32,000 bases of DNA from Ruminococcus albus 7 = DSM 20455 (GCF_000179635.2 NC_014833.1:1680001-1712000); one strand, 5' to 3'. Counted from the first letter of the stretch, positions 2 to 23,228 are shown. The notes: generated by a model not told the origin, from the sequence alone. Numbers and translations: made by a program.

Positions 2-1822
2 ATAAAGCAGGTTGAGAACGGCAAGACCACGACCTATACCTTTGACAAGCAGAACAGGCTCGTCAGAGCAACCATTTCGAGCGGTCAGAATGTTACGGTC
101 GAGGAGTATAGGTACGATTACGCAGGCAACAGAACTGCAAAAATAACCGAGGGCGAAACTACCAATTATGTAGTTGATACCAACAGTGCGCTTGCTCAGG
201 TCCTTTATGAAACTGACGGCACGGGCAGCTTGAAAACCTATTACACCAGAGGCAGTGAGCTTATTAGCTTACAGCGTGAGCACGAAGAACGCTACTATTT
301 GTATGACGGTCACGGCAATGTCAGAAGACTTACCGACGAGGACGGTGCTGTAACCGATACCTACGATTATGATGCGTTTGGAAACCTTACAGAGCATACG
401 GGCGAGACCGAGAACAGCTATCTCTATTGCGGTGAACAGTATGATGCAAATACAGGTTTCTACTATCTCCGTGCAAGATATATGAACCCGTCAACGGGGA
501 CATTTATCTCGATGGACAGCTATCAAGGCTCGATGTTTGATCCTGTAAGTCTGCATAAGTATCTGTATGCTAATGCGAATCCGGTGATGAATTGCGACCC
601 GACAGGTTATTTCACGATTGGGGAATGTGATGTCAGTGCAGCTATTCAAGGTGTTCTGGATAAGCTGATTACTCCTAAACTTATTCAGGTATTTAATCGT
701 ATCAACGATCTTGCCACTATTTATGAAACAGGTAAGCAAGTTGTAATGATCTTGACAGACCCTGATATGTCTGCATGGGATGTTGTGTTTGCCCTTGGTC
801 GTGGTGTTATCACAGGTTTGTTCATTAACCATATGTGTGCTATGAAACGCATTGGACCTATCATAAGTAAAATTATGGTTGGTTACGGTCTTGTGTCACA
901 ATGGGAAAGCATAATGGATGCCGCCAAAGACGGAGATTGGGATTTAGTTGCAACTCGTTCTATACAGTTTGTGGTTCAGCTTATCACAATGCACCAAAAC
1001 TGCTTTACCGGGGATACTCTGGTTGCGGCAGAGGACGGACAGATACGCATTGACGAAATTAAAGTCGGCGATAAGGTTTGGGCATATAATGTTGAAACCG
1101 GAGAAACCGAGCTTAAAGGAGTTAAGCAAGTCTACATTCACGAAACAGATGAGCTTTTACACCTATACACTTCTGTTGGTGCAATAGATACTACTTCTAA
1201 TCACCCATTTTACGTGCTTGGAGAAGGCTGGGTTGCCGCAGGTGACTTGGCTGTCGGCGATGAGATCTACTCTCTTGACGGAACGATTGGTATTGTCACC
1301 GGTTCTCAGTTTGAAAAGCTTGATGTGCCTATCAAGGTTTATAATCTTGAAGTTGCTGACTTCAATACATACTTTGTCGGCGATAATGCGGTTTTGGTGC
1401 ATAATTATTCTGATGGTGCAGATACAATGCACTATCCTAAGAAGGCACAAGATATCGATTTACGTGGTACAGGAACCAACTATCGTGATGCATTAGATAT
1501 CGCATTTGAACAGACTGGTTATCCAAAAGAACAGTTTATGGTTTCAAAGTGGGCAAGAGATATAAATGGTAAGTCTATACCAGTGGAATACATGGGACCG
1601 AATGGTTCATATGTTGACATAGATATAGCTCATTTGTCAAGTTTTGATAGAAATGGTAATTGGGCTACTGGACCAGATGTGCCACATGTAGGTTGGCAAA
1701 CTGGAAGAAGCAATAAAACAACAGGTCATATTTTACTTGATGATGTTCCAACAGGAAGAGATTATTGCTATTCTGATTTATCATCGCAAATCGCCAAAAT
1801 ATTAAAGCAATTCGGTTTATAA
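2..1822 (+). CDS. RHS/YD-repeat polymorphic toxin, C-terminal part (5' end lies upstream of the window). Layout: YD repeats, RHS core (ends at DPTG, ~nt 607), hydrophobic pre-toxin linker, PT-HINT (1001-1405), C-terminal toxin domain (1406-1819, family not recognised).
   Basis: Frame 2 is open from nt 2 (IKQVENGKTTTYTFDKQNRLV...), so the TTG at 230 in the ORF track is not the true start. YD-type repeats are present (YRYDYAGNR, YLYDGHGNVRRLTDEDG, YDYDAFGN). The RHS core signature reads YCGEQYDANTGFYYLRARYMNPSTGTFISMD...DPVSLHKYLYANANPVMNCDPTG. Hint motifs follow: CFTGDTLV...TSNHPFYV...VLVHN. Confidence 0.9.
   Translation: MKQVENGKTTTYTFDKQNRLVRATISSGQNVTVEEYRYDYAGNRTAKITEGETTNYVVDTNSALAQVLYETDGTGSLKTYYTRGSELISLQREHEERYYLYDGHGNVRRLTDEDGAVTDTYDYDAFGNLTEHTGETENSYLYCGEQYDANTGFYYLRARYMNPSTGTFISMDSYQGSMFDPVSLHKYLYANANPVMNCDPTGYFTIGECDVSAAIQGVLDKLITPKLIQVFNRINDLATIYETGKQVVMILTDPDMSAWDVVFALGRGVITGLFINHMCAMKRIGPIISKIMVGYGLVSQWESIMDAAKDGDWDLVATRSIQFVVQLITMHQNCFTGDTLVAAEDGQIRIDEIKVGDKVWAYNVETGETELKGVKQVYIHETDELLHLYTSVGAIDTTSNHPFYVLGEGWVAAGDLAVGDEIYSLDGTIGIVTGSQFEKLDVPIKVYNLEVADFNTYFVGDNAVLVHNYSDGADTMHYPKKAQDIDLRGTGTNYRDALDIAFEQTGYPKEQFMVSKWARDINGKSIPVEYMGPNGSYVDIDIAHLSSFDRNGNWATGPDVPHVGWQTGRSNKTTGHILLDDVPTGRDYCYSDLSSQIAKILKQFGL
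1001..1405 (+). repeat. HINT-domain coding block, copy 1 (5' homology handle of the toxin cassettes)
   Basis: Runs from Cys codon 1001-1003 (CFTGDTLV) to His-Asn 1400-1405. It aligns at the nucleotide and protein level with 2489-2896 and, for its 3' half, with 3790-3974. Confidence 0.85.
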
Positions 1823-1835
1823 GGGAGTGCTATTA

Positions 1836-2291
1836 ATGATTGAAGATTTAATAGAATATTGTGTTAAAGGTGATATTAGCTATCGAATTATATCAAACGA
1901 TGAGAAAGAAAAGATTAAAGGTTATATAAATGAACGATATCTTGATAAAAATAGAAAAAGTGGACGTACACTTTTCGACCATTTAAAAATCAGCGAAAGT
2001 GTTACTGCTGATGCTGTTGATTCATGGCAATGGTTGAAGCAGTTTTTCAAAGAGAAAAAGGCGGTTGCTTTTTTTAGATATGATGAAGAACAATACGTTG
2101 AATTGTATGATAGTAGTCTTTTCTTTGAATTCTATGATGATTATGCAGCAATTGAGTTCTATTTGATAGATTCAAATGGAGAATATCTATGCGGTTATAA
2201 TCATTCTCATTGTATTTTTACAATGGGAACTGCTGCCGATTGGTTAGAGAACAATGAGCAATATCGAAATTATTATGGATATGATTTGTGA
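1836..2291 (+). CDS. Candidate cognate immunity protein for the RHS C-terminal toxin (151 aa, acidic, no recognised family)
   Basis: An ORF lies immediately downstream of the toxin stop (1820-1822). RBS AAGGGAG at 1821-1827 sits 8 nt before ATG 1836; the GTG at 1827 in the track lies inside the RBS. The position is typical for a polymorphic-toxin immunity gene, and a strong terminator follows. Confidence 0.7.
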   Translation: MIEDLIEYCVKGDISYRIISNDEKEKIKGYINERYLDKNRKSGRTLFDHLKISESVTADAVDSWQWLKQFFKEKKAVAFFRYDEEQYVELYDSSLFFEFYDDYAAIEFYLIDSNGEYLCGYNHSHCIFTMGTAADWLENNEQYRNYYGYDL

Positions 2292-2360
2292 TTTGAATAT
2301 GTGGCTGATTGTCGAAAAAGTATAATGATATTTTCGATCTATTTGCCGAGGTCAAAATAA
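2277..2360 (+). repeat. 3' cassette handle, copy 1 (relic of an immunity-gene tail plus downstream sequence)
   Basis: GGATATGAT[TTGT]GATTTGAATATGTGGCTGATTGTCGAAAAAGTATAATGA...CTATTTGCCGAGGTCAAAATAA aligns with 3666-3744. A 4-nt indel (TTGT) creates the TGA stop of the first immunity gene. Confidence 0.8.
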
Positions 2361-2380
2361 ACTGACCTCGGCAATTTTTT
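2343..2380 (+). terminator. Rho-independent terminator after the toxin/immunity pair
   Basis: Perfect 12-bp stem TTGCCGAGGTCA / TGACCTCGGCAA with an 8-nt loop, followed by TTTTTT (2375-2380). Confidence 0.85.
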
Positions 2381-2389
2381 GCAAACCAC

Positions 2390-2418
2390 TTGACAAAACA
2401 TTAAACTTATGGCAAAAT
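2390..2418 (+). promoter_or_regulatory. Possible sigma-70-type promoter upstream of orphan cassette 1
   Basis: Perfect -35 TTGACA (2390-2395), 17-nt spacer, weak -10 CAAAAT (2413-2418) preceded by TGG. The -10 is weak and no RBS precedes ATG 2471, so this call is tentative. Confidence 0.3.
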
Positions 2419-2470
2419 ATAGATAAGCGAATGATTTTTTGTATGTTCAATACAGCTTCTGCTTTCACTC

Positions 2471-3256
2471 ATGTCTCTGCATCAGAACTGCTTTACAGGA
2501 GAAACACTTGTATCGACTGAGGACGGACAGAAGAGAATCGACGAGATAGAAGTCGGTGACAAGGTATGGGCGTATGACATATACACTGGAAAAACAGAGC
2601 TTAAAGAAGATCTGACAGTATATGTTCACGATGATGAGACAGAGATACTCCACCTTCACACAACAGCCGGCGACATAGACACAACAACAAATCACCCATT
2701 CTATGTAAACGGCAGAGGCTGGGTAGCTGCAGGCGACTTAACTGTTGGTGATGAGATTTATCAGCTTGACGGGTCAATTGCTGTTGTTACTGGTTCGCAG
2801 TTTGAGAAGCTTGATGTGCCTGTTAAGGTTTATAACCTTGATGTTGAAGATTTCCATTCTTACTTTGTTGGTGATGTGCCGGTTTTGGTGCATAATTATG
2901 GTGGTTCAAGTGATGATACTCCAAATACGCTCTACCATTACACAAATGAAAAGGGTCAAAATGCAATTTTAGAATCAAATGAATTGAAACCTTCGCTTAA
3001 AGCTAACAACCCAAATGATGCAAGATTTGGTGACGGTCAATATTTATCAGACCTTTTACCAGATGAATATTCGCCAATACAATTAGCGTCTCGGTTCATC
3101 CACAGACCAAACCGATACAAGTATACCCATTTTATAGAAATTTTAGTTGAAGGACTAAACGTTGTAAAAGGACGTGACGGAGTATATGTCATTCCTAATC
3201 AAGATTCTTTAGATTTGACTGGAAGAATTATACGATGGGGTAAAGTTGGGAGTTGA
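2471..3256 (+). CDS. Orphan toxin cassette 1: complete PT-HINT domain fused to a different C-terminal toxin (possible HYD1-type ADP-ribosyltransferase-like domain)
   Basis: The ORF starts 6 codons before the Hint Cys (MSLHQN-CFTGETLV). The Hint block 2489-2896 is homologous to 1001-1405 and ends VLVHN-YG. The tail LYHYTNEKGQNAILESNELKPS...ARFGDGQYLSDL resembles the H-Y-D signature of Tox-ART-HYD1 as I recall it (unverified). There is no RHS or delivery region and no RBS. Confidence 0.75.
   Translation: MSLHQNCFTGETLVSTEDGQKRIDEIEVGDKVWAYDIYTGKTELKEDLTVYVHDDETEILHLHTTAGDIDTTTNHPFYVNGRGWVAAGDLTVGDEIYQLDGSIAVVTGSQFEKLDVPVKVYNLDVEDFHSYFVGDVPVLVHNYGGSSDDTPNTLYHYTNEKGQNAILESNELKPSLKANNPNDARFGDGQYLSDLLPDEYSPIQLASRFIHRPNRYKYTHFIEILVEGLNVVKGRDGVYVIPNQDSLDLTGRIIRWGKVGS
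2489..2896 (+). repeat. HINT-domain coding block, copy 2
   Basis: Aligns with 1001-1405 over its full length and with 3790-3974 over its 3' half; I estimate ~93% nucleotide identity to the latter by eye. Confidence 0.85.
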
Positions 3257-3710
3257 TAGTACGGTATATATTTGTATTTCATTCTCTGATGATAAATATT
3301 ACATGGAACTAAATAAGGAAAATGTAGCTTTAAGAGAAATAATACTCCATTCAAAATCATCCATATTCGAGATATCATGTTTTGATGATTGTTTAGCAGA
3401 AGGAGAAGTGGACATTCGCCAAACTGAAGGAGAGATTCTAAAACTCACAAAAGAGCAATTCGAGGAAGTTTGGCAAGGCTATACCGCTCCGTGTAGACCT
3501 GAATGGAATAGAGTAAAAGAATCTATGACTATTGGTACACTTTTAAATATGAAACAGTGTTACATTTATCCGCAAGGAATTATACTTAAACAAAATCATA
3601 TAACAGGATTGTGTAAAAAAATTGACGATTTTTCGTTAAATAAAATTGTAACAGTAAAGATAACCGGGTATGATGATTTGAATATGTGGTTAATTGCCGA
3701 AAAAATATAA
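3246..3710 (+). CDS. Candidate immunity protein for orphan toxin 1 (about 154 aa)
   Basis: The ORF overlaps the toxin stop (3254-3256). Start is uncertain: TTG 3246 or ATG 3303. The C-terminus GYDDLNMWLIAEKI is the intact version of the tail relic seen at 2277-2330. Confidence 0.6.
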   Translation: MGVDSTVYICISFSDDKYYMELNKENVALREIILHSKSSIFEISCFDDCLAEGEVDIRQTEGEILKLTKEQFEEVWQGYTAPCRPEWNRVKESMTIGTLLNMKQCYIYPQGIILKQNHITGLCKKIDDFSLNKIVTVKITGYDDLNMWLIAEKI

Positions 3711-3744
3711 TAAGATTAGAACTATTTGCCCAGGTCAAGATAAT
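3666..3744 (+). repeat. 3' cassette handle, copy 2
   Basis: GGGTATGATGATTTGAATATGTGGTTAATTGCCGAAAAAATATAATAA...CTATTTGCCCAGGTCAAGATAA aligns with 2277-2360. The terminator hairpin present in copy 1 is missing here. Confidence 0.8.
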
Positions 3745-3789
3745 CTCAAAGTTTCGTCTCTTTTTTTGGTACTGTAAAGACAATTTGTC

Positions 3790-3974
3790 GGCTGGGTTTG
3801 GTTGCCGCAGGTGACTTGGCTGTTGGTGATGAGATTTATCAGCTTGACGGTTCAATTGCTGTTGTTACTGGTTCGCAGTTTGAAAAGCTTGATGTGCCTG
3901 TTAAGGTTTATAATCTTGAGGTTGAGGATTTCCATTCCTATTTTGTTGGTGATGTGCCGGTTTTGGTGCATAAC
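3790..3974 (+). repeat. HINT-domain coding block, copy 3 (3' half only)
   Basis: Near-identical to 2712-2896 by eye. Ends at CAT AAC (His-Asn) 3969-3974. Confidence 0.8.
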
Positions 3975-4229
3975 TATGGGAATGATGAACATCTGCCAAC
4001 ATATAATACGCCAGGAACTGGACCATTAAATAAATACGACGAATACGGTAATATTATCCAAACAAAGTATTATGACGAGTATGGTAGGCAAATAGGTTGG
4101 GTCGATTTTACCGATCATGGGTATCCTGATGTCCATACAATACCACATTGGCACGAAGTGATTTATAATGTTATTTTCCCAGATGGAAAAATAATCAATC
4201 ATAGAATGGATCCAAATCCACCATTTTAA
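3798..4229 (+). CDS. Orphan toxin cassette 2: 5'-truncated HINT (C-terminal half only) fused to a third, unrelated toxin domain. Probably not expressed on its own.
   Basis: Homology to the other HINT blocks begins abruptly at ~3790 (GGCTGGGTT) with a 5-nt TGGTT insertion. The protein reads (G)WVAAGDLAVGDEIYQLDG...VLVHN-YGNDEHL... The tail has YDEYGN / YYDEYGR repeats and the His-rich stretch DHGYPDVHTIPHWHE. The only start available is TTG 3798. Confidence 0.6.
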   Translation: MVAAGDLAVGDEIYQLDGSIAVVTGSQFEKLDVPVKVYNLEVEDFHSYFVGDVPVLVHNYGNDEHLPTYNTPGTGPLNKYDEYGNIIQTKYYDEYGRQIGWVDFTDHGYPDVHTIPHWHEVIYNVIFPDGKIINHRMDPNPPF

Positions 4230-4553
4230 CTAATTCCTGAATCTGCAAAGTTCATGTGTATTAAAATAGTAAAAGCATTGATATTTCAACGTTAAATTTA
4301 CTGTTTCATAGTACAATTATAGGTTATCAGTTGGGTGAAGTCACAAATAGTTATTATATCGCTAATAAACTGCGTTATATTGCTGTATTTTTCGCATATT
4401 TGTTGATTGAACTTTGCGGATTAAGGTAATTCTTTGTAAATTCTAAATGTTGTATGTCGAATGAAAAGAGTAATGTATTATTTGTTTGTACATTATTTTT
4501 AAAAAGGTATTCAATATTTAGCATTAACGATATACTAATAGGGAGGGATAAAG

Positions 4554-4901
4554 ATACTATTTACTTTAGATGATAGTAACTTTAATACTAGTAAGATCAT
4601 CAATATAATAAATGCAATTTCTACCATTGATAATAAAAATACTTATTTTATAATTAAACAATACGAGATTGCATTATTAAATAAGTACTATGATTGTTAT
4701 GAATTACCTAATGATTTAATAACAACTTTTGTTAAAATGCAAATTAAGAGTAATGGATTTGCTTGCATAGATTATTCCATGTTTATGCAGTCATTAAATG
4801 AATGCAGGACAGTATATTATGGTTTAATTGAAGCATATTCCTCTAATAATAAGCTTTTTCAATTAAAAATCCATGACGGTGATATTATAGAAATCGATTA
4901 A
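4554..4901 (+). pseudogene. Immunity-like open frame with no canonical start codon (115 sense codons). It may continue by a frameshift to the stop at 5024-5026.
   Basis: The frame is open from 4542 to TAA 4899-4901 in ~25% GC DNA, where stop codons should be frequent. A strong RBS GGGAGGG (4541-4547) lies 6 nt before ATA 4554. The first ATG/GTG/TTG in frame is far downstream, so the ORF track missed it. A second open frame (4891-5026, ...KAAQQLGIEKVKVDVIISYEESNELGITQLEIFKPVPKQYR) abuts it. The merged length of ~157 codons matches the neighbouring immunity ORFs. Confidence 0.4.
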
Positions 4902-5036
4902 AAGCGGCACAACAACTTGGCATTGAAAAGGTAAAAGTTGATGTAATAATATCATATGAAGAGTCTAACGAGTTGGGAATAACTCAATTAGAAATATTTA
5001 AGCCTGTTCCAAAACAATATAGGTAATGATGGTAAA

Positions 5037-5504
5037 ATGGGATTTGAAAGTTATTCATGCAAAGTTGTGATGGACAATTCAGATAATGATGGTGTACTTA
5101 ATGAATTTAACAATACTGTATCAAATATTTTGGATTTAAAAGTAAAAGAATTTAATAGTTACTATATTTATAAAAATATAGAAATTTATGTAGAAAAAGA
5201 AAACTTTGTTTCTTTTATTTTGAAGGGTTGTTTTATTTGTTATAATCAAGGATTAGATCAAATGATCGATATAATTAATTGTATAAAAGAAGTTGGTAAT
5301 GTACGCATATATTGCTTAGATCAATTAATTGATGATATTTCTTTTAAAACAAATATAAAGATACTATACAAAGAAAAGCAGGATTTTTTTGATAAAAAAT
5401 ATTCTAATATTATAGTAGAAACAACTTGTACTGGTTTTTATAGAATAAAGCCCTATATTGACTTTATGTTAAAAATAAAAAGTAAATTAGGGTTCTATAA
5501 ATGA
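5037..5504 (+). CDS. Hypothetical AT-rich protein (155 aa), possibly an orphan immunity protein at the end of the toxin locus
   Basis: Intact ORF in very AT-rich DNA, with size and composition similar to the other immunity candidates. Only a weak RBS. GC content rises sharply immediately after its stop (TGA 5502-5504). Confidence 0.55.
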   Translation: MGFESYSCKVVMDNSDNDGVLNEFNNTVSNILDLKVKEFNSYYIYKNIEIYVEKENFVSFILKGCFICYNQGLDQMIDIINCIKEVGNVRIYCLDQLIDDISFKTNIKILYKEKQDFFDKKYSNIIVETTCTGFYRIKPYIDFMLKIKSKLGFYK

Positions 5505-6138: not shown

Positions 6139-6677
6139 TCATATTCTGGCTTTGATTTCTCCATTTCTCTTTGCGTCCATGTATATTTCTTTGAAATCAG
6201 CTTTGCTGTTCGGACCGAATATGATCGGCATAACAGATACCAGGCCATCGGAAATGATCGCATTTTTAAATGGCAGAAGCGCTGCATCAAGCAAAGTTGG
6301 CATCGGTGCATTTCTCAGCATTTCCTCCCAACTGCTGACAATGCCGTTTACAAGAAAAACAGAATTGTCATCGATCGATATAAATACCGATCCCTTTTTC
6401 CAATGTCGCTCAATGATAAATCTGCCGGTGATGCACCCTTTCCAGCTTTTAAGTATCTCCATGTGTTCTTCGGGCAGATCCGATCGCTCAAGATAATCAT
6501 CAATGATCCATGTCCGTTCCCATAAAAGTGGGCAACCTCCGCAGCGTCCTGTGGGTCGATCATTCCTTGCCCGAAATAATCTTCCTCAGGAAGTATATGA
6601 TATTCTCTGTTCACATAGTCAAGCAGTGGAAAAAACAGTTCATAAAACAGCTTTGCATCTTCATTACTAAGTTTCAT
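6139..6677 (-). pseudogene. IS66 copy A passenger gene of unknown function (~180 aa if repaired), apparent frameshift
   Basis: Two overlapping ORFs (6348-6677 and 6139-6462) read as a single protein if one base is restored near the T-run at ~6515-6525. Its ATG overlaps the tnpC stop (GGAGGGAAGAAAATGAAA). A hairpin (GCCGGG...CCCGGC, ~6110-6132) lies between the ORF and the IS end. Confidence 0.5.
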
Positions 6678-8177
6678 TTTCTTCCCTCCATGGTAATAAT
6701 ATCGTCCCCGCAGGCTGTGAAAACAGCTCGGTCAGGTATTTCTCAGCATCAACACCGTTCGCCTGTGCAGTTGAAATGATCGAATACAGCGTTGCACTTG
6801 ATCTGGCTCCGTTTGCTGTATTTGAAAACAGCCAATTTTTTCGGCCTAACGCAAACGGTCTTATTGCGTTTTCGGCTCTGTTGTTGTCGATAGGCACGTC
6901 TCCGTTTTCAAGAAACGTGTAAAGATATTTCCGTTCATTCAACGCATATCTTACTGCATCTGTCAGCTTGCCCTTACCACTGACCTGAACATTTTCAAGC
7001 CACGCAAAAAACTCGTCAAGCAAAGGCTTTACCTTCACAAGGCGCTGTTTATATCTGTATTCTGTGGAGCTGTCGGCAAGCAGATTTTCTTCGTGATATA
7101 TCTTGTTGAAATATTCTACTGCCTTTGCCGCAACAGAAGTGCTGTGCAGCTTTTGGTCGTTCGGAAGAGCCTGAATAAAACCACGCCTTGCATGAGTCAT
7201 ACAGCCGCATCGCTTAGCACCCTCGACTGCATTGTAGGCATCGTATCCGTCACAGATAAGATAGCCGATAAATCCTTTCAGGAAATTCGAGGCGTGCTCA
7301 CCCTTTCGTGTCGGCTGATAATCGAAAATGATGATGCTCCTGTCATTCATTTTGCCGTTGCAGTAGACCCACATTCTTGATGTCGTGGTAGGCTTTCGGC
7401 CTTCCTCGTGAAGCACCTGAACGGTCGTTTCATCGGCATGGATCATCTGCCCTGCGATAAGCATCTCATGCATTTTCTCCACAATCGGCAAACACCATTT
7501 TTCGGCAGCAGTGCCTACCCAATTAGACATAGTCGCTTTGAGCAGAGGTATGTTTTTGGAATTAAAGTCCTTTTCCTGACGGTGCAGAGGTACTGACTTT
7601 GCATATTTTCGTAGATGATATGAGCCAGAAGTTCGGGAGAGCAATAGCTTCCCGGGATCATAGCGTGAGGATATGGCGCACGGATGATATGACAAGGTTC
7701 GTCCCTTTCTTCGGGCTTTTCTCCGCACTCGGGACACTTGTACTTATGTACTATATGCCTGCGGATATGATATTTTGGCGGCGTAAATATAAGTTCATCG
7801 TAAGCCTTTTCGGGAGTCAGTTCTTCCATTTCGGCGCCGCATATTTCGCATACCGGGTTGTCAATTTTGTGATGTTCTTCTTTTACAGGCAGATTGTTCA
7901 TCCATTCATCGTGAGTGCGTTTTTTCTTGCGCTTGTGTTCGGGAACAGTAATTGTTTCGGCAGATTTAGCTGCGGATTTTTCTTCATTGTTTCCGAACAT
8001 GGAAAGCTGAACACCGAACTCCTTTTCCATAACAACAGATGTCTGCTCTGTTTTTCTTCCGAATATCTGCTTTCTGAACCACGCTAACTGCTGATTGGCA
8101 AGTGCTAGTTCTTCCTTGAGAACAGCGTTTTCATTACGGAGCGATACAATTTCCGATGTCATATTTGGTTCGGACAT
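6667..8177 (-). pseudogene. tnpC: IS66 transposase TnpC, copy A, single frameshift
   Basis: The N-terminal frame (MSEPNMTSEIVSLRNENAVLKEEL..., zinc-ribbon CEICG...CPECG) and the C-terminal frame (...HADETTVQVL...DGYDAYN...NRAENAIRPFALGRKNWLF, DDE region) overlap. The shift maps to an A4 run (7606-7609, minus strand) that is A5 in copy B. RBS GGAGGGG lies before ATG 8177. Confidence 0.85.
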
Positions 8178-8269
8178 AAAGCACCCCTCCGTTCGTGATG
8201 ATACTTTAATGATACCACGAAAAGAGGGGCTTTTCAAGCACATATTCTGAATATTCGGTAAGTATTGCC

Positions 8270-9038: not shown

Positions 9039-9638
9039 TTAGACTTCGGTGGGGTAGGTGCTGGGGGTTATACGCTTACGTTCATACTCACGCACACGGC
9101 GGTAAAAGGTATTTGCCGACATATCCATTCTCCGCATAAAATCACGCCCCGTGATGTGCTTTGATTTCCATTCCCCATAGAGCTGCCCGAACCTCGTCCA
9201 GTCGGTGGGGATAGGCTTTCGCCCGGTGTACTTGCCCTGTGCCTTAGCGATCTCGATGCCCTCACGCTGTCGCTGTTTAAGCTGCTCACGCTCCAACTGA
9301 GAGAGTGCAGCGAACACAGTCAACATAAATTTACCCGCAGGCGTGTCGGTGTCAATTTTCTCCTTGTGGCTGATAAGGGTAACACCCTTTTCCGTCAGGG
9401 TGTCGATGATGTTCAGCAAGTCTTTCGTGGAGCGTCCGAGACGGCTGATGCTCTCGATATAGAGAGTATCGCCCTCACGCACATAGTCCAGCATAGCCCT
9501 GAGCTGAGGGCGGTCTGTGTTCGCTCCTGATAGCTTCTCGGAGAAGATGCGGTCAACCTGATAGTCGCACATGATCTCCTGCTGTCTTGCCGTCTCCTGA
9601 TGTTCGGTGGAAACTCTGATGTATCCGATTTTGCTCAT
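9039..9638 (-). CDS. Small serine recombinase (resolvase/invertase family) whose 3' end is replaced by the IS66 terminus
   Basis: MSKIGYIRVSTEHQ...RLGRS...C-terminal HTH. RBS AGGA lies 9 nt before ATG 9638; an alternative ATG at 9656 overlaps the relaxase stop. Codons after ...RRVREYE are encoded by the IS end (RKRITPSTYPTEV*). Removing the IS and one TSD copy restores ...REYELRHGITEQTSA* with its stop at 6032-6034, and the restored length (612 nt) is in frame. Confidence 0.85.
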   Translation of the reverse strand: MSKIGYIRVSTEHQETARQQEIMCDYQVDRIFSEKLSGANTDRPQLRAMLDYVREGDTLYIESISRLGRSTKDLLNIIDTLTEKGVTLISHKEKIDTDTPAGKFMLTVFAALSQLEREQLKQRQREGIEIAKAQGKYTGRKPIPTDWTRFGQLYGEWKSKHITGRDFMRRMDMSANTFYRRVREYERKRITPSTYPTEV

Positions 9639-9655: not shown

Positions 9656-11332
9656 TTATTCCAGATAGTTTTTGTTTTTCTGCTGGGTGAGCTTCTTCTG
9701 CCTGTATTTCTCACGCTCACGCCTGTTGTGTTCTTCGTTCATATAGTTTCTGACCTGTCGGACATACTTCTTCGCTGTATCACGCTTGGTGACAAATGCC
9801 GTGTGTTCAGGGAGAAGACTGTTATACTTCGATTTCAGCTTGTTGGACTTCTCCAAAAGGTCAAGCATTGTCGGCGGTTTGCCGTCAACAAGATAGGGCT
9901 GTCTATGCTCCTTGATGTACTTGGCTGTTTCCTCATAATCCTCGATAGCGGCGGCGTTTTTCTTCTTGAAACGGCTCTGAAACCAGCCCGATTTGCCTTG
10001 ATACTCCTTGTAGACAGGTGCAAGCTCGTCACGGTGTTTCATCTTGGCGATAAGTGTGTCGATAGCTGTGTATTTCTTTTTCAGCTCCGCAAGTTCGTCC
10101 GTGTGGTCATCAGGGTGACCGCCCTTGTAAAAGAAACTCGCAAGCACATGATATGAAGTCACACCGCCCGATTCAAGGTCTGCGATAATTTCATTGGCTC
10201 TGCCCATACCACGAATCTCTGCCCACGGGTCGGCAGGTGGTGTTGCTTTCTTTTCTGCCTGCGCCTGCCTATCCTGCTCGTTGAGGATTTTGATATATTC
10301 CTCCTCGGTCATAACGCTGAGATTGCTTTCAGGTTCGTTCGCAACAGTTGTCGGTTTGGGTGCAGGAGTGATCTCGGCTGACCTCTCGTCAAGAAGTGCA
10401 AAGAATTCCTCGCTTGTGAGTCCTTTGCTCTTGGTTGGCTTAGTCGGTGCGGTAACTGTCGGTGTCGGCTCGGTCTTGGGTGTGACCGTAGGTTTGGGCG
10501 GTGCAACAGCCTTTTCGGGATTTTTCTTTTCAGCAAGCCTTTCCATAGCAGACTTTGCTTTCTGTATCTGCTCTATCTGCTCGGCTATTCGCTCTGCGGT
10601 GTAGTCTTCGCCCAGCGTTTCGGCTCTTGTGAATTTCTGCTGTCCCTCGCCCGAAAGTCTGAACTTCAGCTTGACTTTGTTCTGTGGCTTGTAAACATAC
10701 TCGATACCGCTTGCAGAACAATTGCGGAGAAAATCTGCAAAGTCCTTGCTGTAAAATGCGACTTCGGCAATCTTGGCTCGGAGTTTGTCTTTCCACGACT
10801 TGCCCTGCAACTGCATATCACGTTCAAAATGAGATACGCCTTTCGCTTTCGGTTCAATTACAGATATGCCGTGTTCCTTGCATAGCTCGTCCGAAATAGC
10901 CCGTAACTGCGCCCATGACCTGTCCTTTACCTTGCCTTGATTGTGTTCGTAGGTAAAACTAAGCCCGTTGTAGAGATTTGTGTTGTTGAAAATGATGTGA
11001 CAATGGGTATGGGACTTGTCTGTGTGAACGGCAAGCACATATTGATAGTTGCCTTGTAAGAAACGGTCGCACAATTCCTCTCCGATCTGCAAGGCTTGTT
11101 CGGGTGTCACTTCATCAGGAGCGAAACTCTGGACTATGTGGTGTGCGAGAATTTGTGTTCGTTCTGTGCCGCCTGCTCTGACGGCTCGGAAGTCGGCGGC
11201 AGCACCGATGCTGTCGGCTCGGCAGGAATAAGACTGCACATATAAGCCGTTGATGGTCTTATCACTTCGGGTGATGTAGTCAAGCGCCGCCCAGTCTGTT
11301 GCCTTGATTGAATGGATAGAAGTGTATGCCAA
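9656..11332 (-). CDS. Relaxase / mobilization nuclease (MobA/VirD2-type) with a Pro/Thr/Lys-rich linker and a long C-terminal region
   Basis: N-terminus MAYTSIHSIKATDWAALDYITRSDKT and the His triad motif VLAVHTDKSHTHCHIIFNNT. TTG start with an upstream GAGAGGGG. The gene sits directly downstream of the mobC-like gene. Confidence 0.85.
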   Translation of the reverse strand: MAYTSIHSIKATDWAALDYITRSDKTINGLYVQSYSCRADSIGAAADFRAVRAGGTERTQILAHHIVQSFAPDEVTPEQALQIGEELCDRFLQGNYQYVLAVHTDKSHTHCHIIFNNTNLYNGLSFTYEHNQGKVKDRSWAQLRAISDELCKEHGISVIEPKAKGVSHFERDMQLQGKSWKDKLRAKIAEVAFYSKDFADFLRNCSASGIEYVYKPQNKVKLKFRLSGEGQQKFTRAETLGEDYTAERIAEQIEQIQKAKSAMERLAEKKNPEKAVAPPKPTVTPKTEPTPTVTAPTKPTKSKGLTSEEFFALLDERSAEITPAPKPTTVANEPESNLSVMTEEEYIKILNEQDRQAQAEKKATPPADPWAEIRGMGRANEIIADLESGGVTSYHVLASFFYKGGHPDDHTDELAELKKKYTAIDTLIAKMKHRDELAPVYKEYQGKSGWFQSRFKKKNAAAIEDYEETAKYIKEHRQPYLVDGKPPTMLDLLEKSNKLKSKYNSLLPEHTAFVTKRDTAKKYVRQVRNYMNEEHNRREREKYRQKKLTQQKNKNYLE

Positions 11333-13118: not shown

Positions 13119-14818
<1,700 letters not shown>

Positions 14819-19526: not shown

Positions 19527-22500
19527 TCAGTTCTTGAAAGCTATGCGGAAGAAGTTATAGAGGTGAGCTCTTATACAGTTATCTCCGTGATAGCCGCCGT
19601 TTACATAGTGCCATATATGAGGCACACCATTCTTTTCAAAGCTGGAGTGGTAGTTTTTGGGATTGTCATAAACGGTCTTATCGTCGCTGCCGGCAGTTAT
19701 CATCAGGAAGTAGGGCTGATCATCACCGCTCCATCTGAATGAACCTGATACTCCGGGAGCAGGGCATATCGCACCGATGTAGCCGAATAAGTCGGGGCGC
19801 TTCATTCCGATCAGGAGCGATTCACGTCCGCCCATTGAGAAGCCTGTGATAGCAGTATTGTCCTGACCTGTTTTGATACTGAAATTTTTCGCAATATATG
19901 GCATAAGATCCTTGGTCAGATCGTTTATGAAGTTATCGTATGCCTGATTGTTTGTTTCATCCATACCTGTACAGGATCTCAGGGTAGGACTTGAGAATAC
20001 ATCAGGGAATACGCAGATCATTTCCTTGGCTGCTCCTTCTGCAATAGCATTTCCTATCATTTCGCGGGTATGCATATCGGCATTTCCTTTTGTGAGCATT
20101 CTGTCGATACCCTCATAGTAGCCGTGAAGGATGTACATTACGGGATATTGCTTGTTGGGATCATAGTTCGGGGGCAGAAGGATATTTACGTCCTTTTGTC
20201 TGTTGCAGGTGGTCGAATAGTAGCTCTTTTTCAGTATCTCACCGTAAGCTACACCATTCTTTGAACTATTTGCTGAATCAGGCTCTTTTTCAACTATACC
20301 GTTCTGGACCTTTGCGGTGAAATCCTTCATTGAAAGATGTGTGTTTATTACAGGAAATTCTTTGATCTCACCCAGAAGATATGACCTGAGCAGGGCTTCG
20401 TCGTTTTCATCAACAGCACCGCTGCGGTCTATATCAGCATTGTATTTTGAAGCACTGTTGTTTATACCCCTGATCATGCCTTTTTTGAGTTCTATAAGAT
20501 CCTTTATCGTGATATTTCCGTCAAGATCAACATCGCCTGTTACGGGTGCTGCAGATCTGTTTATCTTAGTGCCTGCAGGAGCAGCAATGATCTCATCTAT
20601 ATAGAAATCACAAAGCTCCTGTGTGGTTTCTGCCACGAGAACAAGATTCTCGGCACCGCTTGGGATAGTGTACGAAGGATTGTACAGTTGTACGAACTTT
20701 CCTCGGTCGGCATAAGCTTGTGCTATCTTGTCATATTTCGTTTCGCCGTTCAGGTCGTACTGTAATGTTAGTTTGAACTCAGTGGTGTCTGAACCTTCAA
20801 GATTTGCAAAGCAGGCACTGAATGTGTAGCTCTTGCCCGGTACGAATGCACTTGTGCTCAGGGACTTCTGTCCGCCGTTCCATGCTCCGCTCCTTCCCGA
20901 AAGGCTGAGTGATTTGGAGCCTTTATACTTGGCAGAGGAGCTTGCAGCAGCTGTGCATCCGCCTCTTGCAGACCAGTCATCTGTACCGTTTTCAAAAGTA
21001 TCATGGAAAATGTAGCTGCTTGTTTCGGTTCCGGAAGTGTTTCCTTGTGATACTGATGCGGAAGGTGCATCTATCTTTGTCCCGGCGGGAGCAGCTATAA
21101 CTTCATCAATATAGAAATCACAGTTCTCCTCGGTGGTCTCAGCTACCAGCACAAGATTAGTAGCACCGGATGGGATAGTATATGAAGAATTGTAAAGCTG
21201 TACATACTTGCCGCGGTCGCCTGTTTCCTGAGCTATCTTGTCATAATTTGTCTGACCGTTCAGATCGTACTGTAATGTGAGCTTGAATTCTGCAGTGTCA
21301 GGACCTTCCCGATTTATAAAGCAGGCGCTGAACGCATAGCTTTTGCCCGGTACGAATATATTGGTGCTCAATGATCTCATTCCGCCGTTCCATGCTGCAG
21401 TTCTTTCCGAAAGACTTAATGAGTATGATCCGCTGTATTTTGAATCAGTGCTTACAGCAGCTGTACAGCCGCCTCTTGCAGACCATTTACCAATGCCGTT
21501 TTCAAAAGTATCATGGAGCAGGTAGCCGTCCGCATCAGGTTCAACTACGGAAGGCGGATTCCACTCAGCGCGTTCATAGTCAAAATAGTCAACATCAACG
21601 AAACCGCCTGTTGACTTTGTAGCGTAGCTGAATATAGCATTTCTGTATCCTGTGAAAAGTTTTAGATCATAAGTCATACTCAGCTGACTGCCTATCTTTT
21701 TCCATGATATACCGTCAAGAGAGTAATAAAAATTAACCTTGTCTATGTTGTTGGATACGTTATAATTTCCGTCAACGGTATTGAACTGAAATTCTGTTTT
21801 TAAAAATACAGTACTTCCGCTGAATGATACTTCTTCCTGTATCTTGTCAGCGCTGTTCATTACATCGTTTCCACCGTAATTGCCATTTGTAGCCATGTAG
21901 ATCTTTTTTTCACCGCTGTCTGTAATACGCACTCCTATATTTCCGTAGTTATACTGGAAAGCTGAAAGACCTGCATAGTCGCCCGGTTTCATATTGGATA
22001 CATCCATTTTTATAATGCCGGAACAGGAGGGACCTTCTGTTCTCATGGTCAGTGTATTTCTGGCATTCATTATGCTTTTTGCTGTGTAACCGTTTTTAAG
22101 GCGCAGCCAGCCCGGTCTTTCGGTAAGGGACCAGTACCTGTTGTCAGGGTTATGGTTCCACTGCCATTCAGGTTTAAGCTTATTATTGCTGTAAACAAAT
22201 TCGTCATCCACGGCAAGCTGTGTGCCTTTGTGATCACCGGGAATATCCAGTACTACAGGTGCTTTGCCGTTTACACCCATGATCGGCCAGTCGTTCTGCC
22301 AAGTAACAGGGACAAGAACAGGTATACGTCCGACCGCACCATGATCCTGGAAAAGAAGTCCGTACCAATCACCGTCGGGTGTATCTACTATACCGCCCTG
22401 AGCCACTCCTGAACCGTAGGTGCCGAGTCCCGAATCAAGTACGGTCTTGCCTTCAAAAGTTCCGGTAAGGCTCTTGCTGCGGTAGCAAAGTTCGATCCTT

Positions 22501-23228
22501 TTGCTGCCGCTTGGCCATGCTATAAGGAATACGTAGTACCAGCCGTTTATTTTCTGTACATGAGCGCCCTCGCCCGCAAGTCCCGAAAGACCTGTCCTGA
22601 TGATAGTACGCTCCTGTGCGCCGTATGCAAATCCTGTCATCTGTGAGTTGAGCTCCTTGATCTTGATATTGCCGTCGCCGCCGTAAACGAGATAGTTTCT
22701 TCCGTCGTCATCGAAAAGGATAGAAGCATCATGGTACATACCGCTTATCTCACTTTTTGTCCAGCTGCCGTTCTCGATATCATTTGTCTTGTAAATATAT
22801 GACTTGTTCGTGCCGTAGCTTCCGAAAAATACAAAGAACGTTCCTTTGTGATATCTCAGACTTGCAGCCCATGAACCGTGAGAATAGTCATGCTGGCCGT
22901 TTGAAAGCGTCTGCTTAGCACCGTCAGCCATGGTATCATAAACATAGGAGCATATCTCCCATGATACAAGGTCTTTCGATTTCATAACAGGCACGCCGGG
23001 GCTGAAGTACATGGTAGTACTTACCATATAGTAAGTATCACCGACCCTTATTATATCAGGGTCGGGAACATCTGCCCATATTATTGGGTTAGCTACCTGT
23101 CCTGTTTCAAGAGCGTGTGCAGTTGTCACAGGCATCTCTCCGCAAGCGGCTGCCATACAGGATGCTGCAAGTGCCGCTGATGACAATACTGACAGTAGTC
23201 TTTGGGTTATCGGTTTTGGTCTTGACAT
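19527..23228 (-). CDS. Secreted multidomain cellulosomal hemicellulase: signal peptide, GH43, beta-sandwich domain, two CBM22-like (CBM_4_9) modules, dockerin, CE1-type esterase
   Basis: RBS GGGAGGA before ATG 23228 and a hydrophobic signal sequence. GH43 N-terminal motif NPIIWADVPDPDIIRVGDTYYMVSTT...KSKDLVSWE. Two 150-aa repeats (HDTFENG...WSARGGCTAA...FYIDE). Dockerin GDVDLDGNITIKDL...NADIDRSGAVDENDEALL. Esterase motifs YPVMYILHG and GFSMGG. Confidence 0.9.
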   Translation of the reverse strand: MSRPKPITQRLLSVLSSAALAASCMAAACGEMPVTTAHALETGQVANPIIWADVPDPDIIRVGDTYYMVSTTMYFSPGVPVMKSKDLVSWEICSYVYDTMADGAKQTLSNGQHDYSHGSWAASLRYHKGTFFVFFGSYGTNKSYIYKTNDIENGSWTKSEISGMYHDASILFDDDGRNYLVYGGDGNIKIKELNSQMTGFAYGAQERTIIRTGLSGLAGEGAHVQKINGWYYVFLIAWPSGSKRIELCYRSKSLTGTFEGKTVLDSGLGTYGSGVAQGGIVDTPDGDWYGLLFQDHGAVGRIPVLVPVTWQNDWPIMGVNGKAPVVLDIPGDHKGTQLAVDDEFVYSNNKLKPEWQWNHNPDNRYWSLTERPGWLRLKNGYTAKSIMNARNTLTMRTEGPSCSGIIKMDVSNMKPGDYAGLSAFQYNYGNIGVRITDSGEKKIYMATNGNYGGNDVMNSADKIQEEVSFSGSTVFLKTEFQFNTVDGNYNVSNNIDKVNFYYSLDGISWKKIGSQLSMTYDLKLFTGYRNAIFSYATKSTGGFVDVDYFDYERAEWNPPSVVEPDADGYLLHDTFENGIGKWSARGGCTAAVSTDSKYSGSYSLSLSERTAAWNGGMRSLSTNIFVPGKSYAFSACFINREGPDTAEFKLTLQYDLNGQTNYDKIAQETGDRGKYVQLYNSSYTIPSGATNLVLVAETTEENCDFYIDEVIAAPAGTKIDAPSASVSQGNTSGTETSSYIFHDTFENGTDDWSARGGCTAAASSSAKYKGSKSLSLSGRSGAWNGGQKSLSTSAFVPGKSYTFSACFANLEGSDTTEFKLTLQYDLNGETKYDKIAQAYADRGKFVQLYNPSYTIPSGAENLVLVAETTQELCDFYIDEIIAAPAGTKINRSAAPVTGDVDLDGNITIKDLIELKKGMIRGINNSASKYNADIDRSGAVDENDEALLRSYLLGEIKEFPVINTHLSMKDFTAKVQNGIVEKEPDSANSSKNGVAYGEILKKSYYSTTCNRQKDVNILLPPNYDPNKQYPVMYILHGYYEGIDRMLTKGNADMHTREMIGNAIAEGAAKEMICVFPDVFSSPTLRSCTGMDETNNQAYDNFINDLTKDLMPYIAKNFSIKTGQDNTAITGFSMGGRESLLIGMKRPDLFGYIGAICPAPGVSGSFRWSGDDQPYFLMITAGSDDKTVYDNPKNYHSSFEKNGVPHIWHYVNGGYHGDNCIRAHLYNFFRIAFKN
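20562..21014 (-). repeat. CBM-coding tandem repeat, unit 2 (aa ~739-889)
   Basis: Offset of 510 bp (170 aa) from unit 1. The mirrored antisense ORFs 20833-21015 and 21343-21525 show the same periodicity. Confidence 0.8.
21072..21524 (-). repeat. CBM-coding tandem repeat, unit 1 (aa ~569-719)
   Basis: See unit 2. The protein repeats align along their whole length (KLTLQYDLNG(Q/E)T(N/K)YDKIAQ...NLVLVAETT). Confidence 0.8.

Follow-up and report, generated by a model that had tools for sequence, protein, structure and literature searches.

The first 4229 nucleotides of a 32,000-nucleotide stretch from Ruminococcus albus 7 = DSM 20455 (GCF_000179635.2 NC_014833.1:1680001-1712000; hereafter, the window) hold three toxin modules on the + strand, as identified by open reading frame (ORF) and translation analysis. 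The locus very probably encodes the C-terminus of a giant polymorphic toxin of the Rhs/YD-shell type from a Ruminococcus-type Firmicute, followed by two orphan toxin-immunity cassettes, where a pretoxin HINT (PT-HINT) domain acts as the releasing peptidase and cassettes are exchanged within HINT. The three toxins come from unrelated families, and the sequence common to their modules ends abruptly at the C-terminal His-Asn of HINT and the Tyr codon that follows it.

The junction peptides of modules 1, 2, and 3 read FVGDNAVLVHN-YSDGADT, FVGDVPVLVHN-YGGSSDD, and FVGDVPVLVHN-YGNDEHL, with the +1 Tyr codons at 1406–1408, 2897–2899, and 3975–3977. Both these peptides and the starts of the three tails (1406, 2897, and 3975) had been given correctly in an original prediction made from the sequence alone. 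Nucleotide identity, calculated without gaps in 60-nt windows set from the last base of the Asn codon, amounts to 0.75, 0.85, and 0.78 before the junction for modules 1 and 2; to 0.80, 0.88, and 0.75 for modules 1 and 3; and to 0.87, 0.97, and 0.92 for modules 2 and 3. The Tyr codon is identical in all three pairs (3/3 bases), and the values beyond it are 0.30, 0.32, 0.27, and 0.20 for the first pair, 0.28 for the second, and 0.27 for the third, the identity expected from base composition at 36% GC being ~0.27. The nucleotide alignment that had been proposed as a check on the boundary thus shows, in all three pairs, a fall from 75–97% identity over the last 180 nt to 27–35% past the Tyr codon. 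An independent repeat finder ends the three-copy family at 1408, 2899, and 3977, which is the last base of the Tyr codon, and modules 2 and 3 share two more bases past it. The claim that similarity stops exactly at His-Asn is therefore right about the sharp drop at this point, but the common DNA runs through the +1 Tyr codon. Chance is not a credible explanation for the sharing, as the HINT repeats are 180–450 nt long. The toxin tails, for their part, show no BLASTP similarity at E ≤ 10 except for one 18-residue chance match. Selection on the DNA itself at the junction was considered and rejected, since synonymous sites vary within the final 20 codons across 44 related copies, with no conserved nucleotide signal beyond the protein constraint.

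Judging from its sequence, the shared block is a PT-HINT domain of type A among the bacterial intein-like (BIL) domains. In module 1 it spans 135 residues (1001–1405) and matches both PF07591, the 'pretoxin HINT domain' (E 1.8e-27), and PDB 2LWY (E 1.5e-32), the solved structure of a Clostridium thermocellum BIL (Aranko et al. 2013), where query residues 15–149 align with chain residues 4–138, from position 1 to the terminal HN. The HINT of module 2 (2445–2896) and the HINT fragment of module 3 (3790–3974) match the same profile with E values of 4.1e-26 and 2.8e-10, respectively; modules 1 and 2 cover profile positions 1–136 of 137, module 3 covers positions 76–136, and all three lie above the cut-off of 27.7 bits. 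Close homologues are named 'polymorphic toxin-type HINT domain-containing protein' by NCBI. Modules 1 (CFTGD...TSNH) and 2 (CFTGE...TTNH) possess the four intein blocks in full. In module 1, which holds no endonuclease insert, Cys1 lies at 1001–1003 and the terminal His-Asn at 1400–1405, with TSNH as block B, VYNLEV as block F, and VLVHN as block G, the latter being kept in 3/3 modules. These matches bear out the expected HINT domain with the block G His-Asn at its end, and the close homologues whose C-terminus is intact all retain the pair (101/101). Of 54 full-length copies in other genomes, 53 have Cys or Ser at position 1, all 54 have the block B His, and 48 the block B Thr.

The terminal His-Asn is the feature that separates type A from type B BILs, and it is accompanied here by the profile match, Cys/Ser1 and TxxH (in modules 1 and 2), the lack of a nucleophile at +1, and the similarity to 2LWY. 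A-type BILs, reportedly described by Amitai et al. in 2003 and by Dassa et al. in 2004, resemble these domains in their size of ~135 residues without endonuclease insert, in Cys1, TxxH, blocks F and G, and the terminal His-Asn not followed by Cys, Ser, or Thr, as well as in their location in variable regions of secreted bacterial proteins. Nothing essential sets the two apart; here the host protein is a Rhs/YD-shell toxin, and the organism a Ruminococcus-type inhabitant of the rumen or gut. The domains do not conform to canonical class 1 inteins, as the +1 residue is Tyr in 3/3 modules rather than Cys, Ser, or Thr, and the C-terminal side is occupied by three toxin domains with no relation to one another instead of one conserved host protein. 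Nor do they conform to the Hedgehog-type Hint (Hog) domains, which resolve their N-terminal thioester through a sterol-recognition region and have no terminal HN; PF01079 (Hint) is matched in its N-terminal part only, with 24.8 bits for module 1 against a cut-off of 29.7. Two PDB matches labelled as ADP-ribosyltransferase (6TMM and 6Y75) were discarded as cases of a toxin-linked HINT, because they actually correspond to the Tetrahymena BIL2 domain.

The HINT of module 1 is embedded in the main gene, whose ORF enters the window from the left in the frame of nucleotide 2 and reaches its stop codon at 1820–1822. As in Rhs-type toxins, the 3' part of this gene (2–610, + strand) encodes RHS/YD repeats (Pfam RHS_repeat, E 8.8e-13) and an Rhs-associated core (TIGR03696 Rhs_assc_core, E 1.8e-17, residues 123–202) that terminates in the PxxxxDPxG-type motif PVMNCDPTGY (581–610, residues 194–203 of the window translation; DPTGY at 596–610). 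The gene extends beyond the start of the window, its 5' end being outside locus L001 as well, and in the assembly GCA_000621285.1—which also encodes the exact product of the ORF at 2471–3256—its product is called at 3501 residues, with TEN_YD-shell, RHS_repeat, PT-HINT, and Ntox47 matches. Between the core motif and HINT lies a pre-toxin linker of 130 residues (611–1000, + strand), which matches no Pfam family and whose centre is moderately hydrophobic (WDVVFALGRGVITGLFINHMCAM...IGPIISKIMVGYGLV); a part in membrane translocation is conceivable. The linker is conserved together with the constant part of the gene: query residues 1–267 or 1–266 are matched by 12 loci of Oscillospiraceae and Ruminococcus with 52–63% identity, a figure that includes HINT, and in two related loci (L002 and L004) the linker segment is nearly identical despite their different toxins. 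HINT is followed by toxin 1 (1406–1822, + strand), which comprises 138 residues from the shared +1 Tyr, belongs to Ntox47 (PF15540, E 3.3e-24), and is predicted to be a BECR-fold RNase.

The DNA identity of HINT is 73% between modules 1 and 2, 82% between modules 1 and 3, and 92% between modules 2 and 3. The ratio of nonsynonymous to synonymous substitution rates (dN/dS) between modules ranges from 0.07 to 0.17; it is 0.13 for modules 1 and 2, with a dS of ~1.4 that is near saturation, and 0.13–0.17 for the main against the orphan HINTs, with a dS of 0.7–1.4. These low ratios with near-saturated synonymous sites argue for purifying selection on the protein and not on the DNA. They bear on the proposal that the boundary is a plain domain-shuffling edge, where HINT would be catalytically idle and serve as a spacer or as mere DNA homology. 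A sharp boundary needs no catalysis, and module 3 retains only the C-terminal 60 residues, which are not catalytic alone; however, the catalytic positions are all conserved across phyla, which, together with the selection on the protein, renders an idle HINT most improbable.

There is likewise very little chance that the modules arose in recent times by tandem duplication on the spot, with their 3' parts overwritten afterwards, instead of being cassettes of separate origin. The HINT repeats lie at regular distances (1491 and 1488 nt), and so do the copies of the 3' repeat (1385 nt); this spacing, the common 3' repeat after immunity genes 1 and 2, and the 92% identity between modules 2 and 3 would all be in line with such a duplication. 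Nevertheless, the dS of ~1.4 between the HINTs of modules 1 and 2 is far too old for it, the toxins and the immunity genes are unrelated, and each module has closer HINT relatives in other genomes (for instance, P0001 at 82%).

As for the release itself, the terminal Asn would cyclise onto its own carbonyl with the assistance of the penultimate His, so that the Asn-Tyr bond is cut and the toxin is freed with an N-terminal Tyr. In addition, Cys1 and the block B TxxH would generate a thioester at the upstream junction, through which HINT could also leave the Rhs stalk. Type A BILs end in His-Asn as inteins do, give mainly N- and C-cleavage products, and undergo cleavage by Asn cyclisation in vitro (PMC4031507; PMC7664689), and the anticipated cleavage after His-Asn is the accepted prediction. 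We infer that such cleavage occurs in vivo, as well as its place and timing, and the released species could be the free toxin, HINT-toxin, or linker-HINT-toxin.

The further claim that splicing cannot occur and that only C-terminal cleavage is possible goes too far, since type A BILs splice weakly and also cleave N-terminally, and modules 1 and 2 retain an intact Cys1 and TxxH. Type A BILs without a +1 nucleophile splice at low yield, with the freed amine attacking the Cys1 thioester by aminolysis (PMC4031507; PMC7664689). Were splicing rather than release the outcome here, the amine of Tyr469 would attack the Cys1 thioester and the toxin would be joined to the 130-residue linker, leaving the Rhs aspartyl-protease site DPTGY as the real release point. 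Ligation of flanks without a nucleophilic side chain does occur in type A BILs, including the Clostridium thermocellum domain (2LWY, E 1.5e-32), and the cleavage-type motif of the Rhs core lies 130 residues upstream. This outcome is nonetheless improbable, because the tested BILs give mostly cleavage products and, in a Magnetospirillum BIL whose +1 residue is Tyr, splicing was obtained only once this residue had been changed to Cys (PMC4031507).

The intact Cys1 and TxxH of modules 1 and 2, together with the position-1 nucleophile in 53/54 relatives, mean that N-terminal chemistry is to be expected too. HINT might even act chiefly at its N-terminal junction: the Cys1 thioester would be hydrolysed, or else passed on to another nucleophile in the way that Hedgehog transfers to cholesterol and Tetrahymena BIL2 ligates to lysine. 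The released unit would be HINT-toxin, or the stalk would be covalently attached elsewhere, and the Asn cleavage would be secondary. Besides the conserved N-terminal residues, this is favoured by the recovery of both N- and C-cleavage products from BILs (PMC7664689) and by the transfer of the N-extein onto lysine by BIL2 (PMC8616854). It is a possibility to be kept in mind, although an unlikely one, since His-Asn is conserved as strictly as Cys1, which would be unexpected were the C-terminal reaction dispensable. Moreover, the two reactions are not mutually exclusive, and the Hedgehog-type Hints that serve as a model do not end in HN.

The residues just after His-Asn were compiled from 135 distinct toxin tails located behind PT-HINT copies (window, P0001–P0120, and L002–L060), in counts that are uncorrected for the shared ancestry of these residues. 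These residues are not random: Tyr is found at +1 in 60 tails and at +1 or +2 in 74, Cys occurs within +1 to +4 in 53, and one or the other condition holds for 126 of the 135, the background per position being 4.2% for Tyr and 0.6% for Cys. Only 16 tails bear Cys, Ser, or Thr at +1; the copies from Ktedonobacteria consistently read HN-C, and thus hold a true +1 nucleophile. It is conceivable, if rather doubtful, that the junction residues are constrained by what the C-terminal reaction of HINT, or some later step, requires—possibly a shifted thiol capturing the Cys1 thioester—which would constitute an undescribed substrate rule of PT-HINT. Alternatively, these one to four residues would belong to the HINT-linked constant part. 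If true, such a rule would be relevant to the engineering of BIL-based release tags, and it may be the sole point of this locus that goes beyond the described literature.

The same boundary is found in other genomes. A scan with one genome per species yielded 59 related loci (L002–L060), which span Firmicutes, Bacteroidota, Proteobacteria, Chloroflexota, and Planctomycetota, and hold from one to three HINT copies each, according to tblastn. The extra copies begin at many different points within the domain (query start 16 to 106), yet all of them extend as far as His-Asn. In 21 within-locus pairs from 16 loci, identity averages 0.88 over the 90 nt that precede the junction and 0.33 beyond it, and pairs with a non-Tyr +1 residue diverge from the first base past Asn. 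Near-identical main genes with different toxins were also compared (L002/L004, L003/L007, and L010/L011), and they exhibit 0–7 mismatches per 50 nt in the part of the linker adjoining HINT, 1–15 within HINT, and ~33 past HN. This divergence of close relatives from within HINT supports its role as the crossover zone, where the 3' part of HINT would move along with its own cassette. Thus, each cassette would bring its own HINT, or the 3' part of it, and homologous exchange between loci would take place within this domain; with HINT in every cassette, it would be the last sequence common to all of them, and similarity would end at His-Asn(-Tyr).

One further pair involves two metagenome-assembled genomes assigned to different families (L004 8419–8819, Lachnospiraceae, and L006 4809–5209, Ruminococcus). 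Their ~1000 nt before the junction are near-identical and their toxin is identical (100% and 99% after the junction), whereas the last ~250 nt of HINT hold 4–10 mismatches per 50 nt, a difference that looks like a gene-conversion patch in HINT.

Several points weigh against HINT as both the releasing peptidase and the site of exchange. The longest exact runs are of 20 nt between modules 1 and 2, 24 nt between modules 1 and 3, and 32 nt between modules 2 and 3, and with an identity of 73–82% and exact runs of 20–24 nt between the main and the orphan HINTs, RecA-type exchange would be inefficient here, the minimal homology length of this process placing the pair at the margin. The orphans have the appearance of cassettes that were displaced or imported long ago rather than of a set in active shuffling, and a continued exchange of orphans 2 and 3 with the main gene is merely presumed. 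The idea of HINT as a recombination handle is therefore supported at the family level, where it is backed by the mosaic relatives, but weak in this genome. Regarding release, block F holds an Asn where many inteins hold an Asp, although its invariance in 54/54 copies suggests that this is probably normal for BILs. The upstream PVMNCDPTGY is a second, independent cleavage-type site, so that HINT is perhaps not the only release step, or not the first one. Finally, a 2026 survey still describes PT-HINT as 'predicted to facilitate toxin release' (PMC13483458).

The locus exhibits the layout expected of an Rhs-type toxin with orphan cassettes: toxins 1 and 2 each have a small adjacent ORF whose immunity role is deduced from its position, and the cassettes downstream of the main gene, one of them truncated, share the junction sequence. 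Module 2 is complete. Its homology to module 1 begins ~14 codons before Cys1 (957/2445, module 2 starting at 2445–2447) and comprises repeat families D1 and D2; its ORF (2471–3256, ATG at 2471) holds Cys1 at 2489–2491 and His-Asn at 2891–2896, and tblastn matches 2489–2896 with 72% amino acid identity. The toxin that follows (2897–3256, + strand) is an HYD1-type ADP-ribosyltransferase of 119 residues including the +1 Tyr (PF15633 Tox-ART-HYD1, E 1.1e-26). An internal promoter for this orphan was considered at 2390–2418 (TTGACA-17-CAAAAT with TG), just 3' of a terminator, and rejected: promoter-like sites in the region number 25 against 23.9 expected from shuffled sequences, and no conclusion can be drawn from this one.

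Module 3, on the contrary, begins inside HINT at ~3790, near residue 73, and holds only the C-terminal residues ~73–135 with blocks F and G, plus a 4-nt insertion close to its 5' edge (tblastn match 3795–3974, query residues 76–135; His-Asn at 3969–3974). Its 5' truncation, with the loss of Cys1 and the block B TxxH, makes it a fragment and not a functional member. Lacking the catalytic N-terminal half of HINT, module 3 would be able to act only once recombined into a full gene, and the two orphans would represent displaced or acquired reserve cassettes. Toxin 3 (3975–4229, + strand) is an intact ORF of 84 residues including the +1 Tyr, with a weak Ntox24-like match (PF15529, E 0.002, 18.8 bits, under the cut-off of 24). 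The region 3' of it (4230–5504) is very AT-rich, with 24–28% GC, and contains an open frame at 4551–4901, preceded by the RBS-like (ribosome-binding site) sequence AGGGAGGG at 4543 and holding no ATG, GTG, or TTG before 4737, as well as a second ORF of 155 residues at 5037–5504. These two frames are candidates for the immunity function of module 3, and family searches returned no match for either. No additional HINT fragments were detected by tblastn elsewhere in the window, for instance past the IS66 element described below.

The candidate immunity genes of modules 1 and 2 follow their toxins directly and owe their presumed role to this position. The first (1836–2291, + strand) encodes 151 residues when started at ATG 1836 (the mechanical ORF opens with GTG 1827) and is called at 9366–9821 of L001; its sole family signal is a weak, sub-cut-off match to DUF6756 (E 0.0016). 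The second (3303–3710, + strand) encodes 135 residues according to the public-assembly call (the mechanical ORF starts at TTG 3246) and gave no match in family searches. Homology between the two proteins was rejected (E 23), and they have only the 3' repeat in common. This repeat (family D3) lies at 2289–2374 in copy 1, with similarity reaching ~2368, and at 3674–3750 in copy 2, both on the + strand. The 44-nt cores (2289–2332 and 3674–3717) are 86% identical, the similarity extends over ~80 nt, and a 23-nt probe (2289–2311) finds two matches against 0 expected from 100 shuffles. Copy 1 holds a strong intrinsic-terminator hairpin (2343–2374), which has decayed in copy 2, and a 4-nt indel causes immunity ORF 1 to stop at the start of the repeat while ORF 2 reads through it.

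The variable block therefore spans the whole immunity gene as well, and in cassettes 1 and 2 it is bounded in 3' by this second repeat. The notion that the variable DNA corresponds precisely to the released polypeptide applies to the 5' edge only, even though the first released residue, Tyr, is itself shared, but the immunity gene also falls within the block. A 15-mer from the core of the 3' repeat is absent from the 59 other loci, and the repeat is local to this genome. As a general cassette feature it was dismissed, for blastn of the variable segments from 15 other multi-copy loci revealed extra shared segments in two or three only, in a survey where the window's own second segment was too short to span the repeat.

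The use of the releasing domain as the homology for toxin swapping is already known, the pattern being textbook matter for polymorphic toxin loci since work of 2003–2015, and this locus is an ordinary, well-preserved example of it; the design principle for toxin exchange that had been put forward is right in outline, but had already been published (PT-HINT 2012, MafB 2015, and CdiA 2016 and 2022). HINT just before the toxin was described as a releasing peptidase by Zhang in 2012, whose tables give HINT and RHS as partners of Ntox47 and Ntox24 (PMC3482391). In the Neisseria class 1 MafB system, the downstream mafB-CT (C-terminal) orphan cassettes open with a BIL slightly shortened at its 5' end, have a start codon of their own, and each precede their immunity gene (Jamet et al. 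2015, PMC4287609), and module 2 exhibits the same layout. However, the MafB carrier is a Sec-dependent DUF1020 protein instead of Rhs, and the Neisseria orphan BILs lack the first 7 residues only, while one of the orphans described here is complete and the other lacks ~72 residues. Similarly, the BIL motif WVHN marks the boundary between the conserved pre-toxin region and the variable one in Pseudomonas class I CdiA (Mercy et al. 2016, PMC4725963), and a review predicts that cleavage leaves the terminal Asn as the final residue (Cuthbert et al. 2022, PMC9086364). The idea of a BIL motif as boundary and cleavage point is the same, although CdiA relies on a type Vb (two-partner) secretion carrier and orphan arrays have not been described for class I CdiA.

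In canonical Rhs toxins, PxxxxDPxGL closes the conserved region and is also associated with autoproteolysis (PMC13515810). In contrast, the PVMNCDPTGY of this locus (581–610) is not the variable boundary, as the 130-residue linker and HINT come after it. Orphan rhs-CT/immunity cassettes reportedly retain a piece of the conserved region as homology (Jackson 2009 and Koskiniemi 2014 are said to have described this). The orphans of this locus bring HINT instead of Rhs core sequence. The Streptomyces umbrella toxin UmbC (PDB 8W20 / 8W22) also holds HINT directly before its C-terminal polymorphic toxin, and its authors suggested HINT cleavage as a possibility; it differs in its ALF-repeat stalk, its multiprotein particle, and its only distantly related HINT (E 4.5e-09). 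With a full gene, a complete orphan, and a truncated orphan, the locus offers a clean example in a cellulosomal Ruminococcus-type genome, and a small HINT-Ntox47 or HINT-ART (ADP-ribosyltransferase) construct with its immunity gene would be a convenient test case for PT-HINT release in vivo.

Genes related to mobile elements lie downstream of the array. An IS66-family transposase is encoded ~1.3–2.4 kb past it (6667–8243, - strand) as two overlapping ORFs with a probable frameshift, and the public draft contig ends within this region. In other genomes, single ORFs fuse a PT-HINT fragment with IS66 transposase sequence (P0073 and P0082), which indicates that IS66 is recurrent beside such arrays. 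Farther downstream, a MobA/VirD2-type relaxase (9656–11332, - strand) and a large serine recombinase with Resolvase, Recombinase, zinc ribbon, and DUF4368 domains (13190–14818, + strand) point to a possible mobilisable element integrated next to the toxin genes. Finally, a protein of 1233 residues (19527–23228, - strand), bearing GH43, CBM_4_9, dockerin, and esterase domains, is a cellulosomal enzyme that is consistent with a Ruminococcus-type host.

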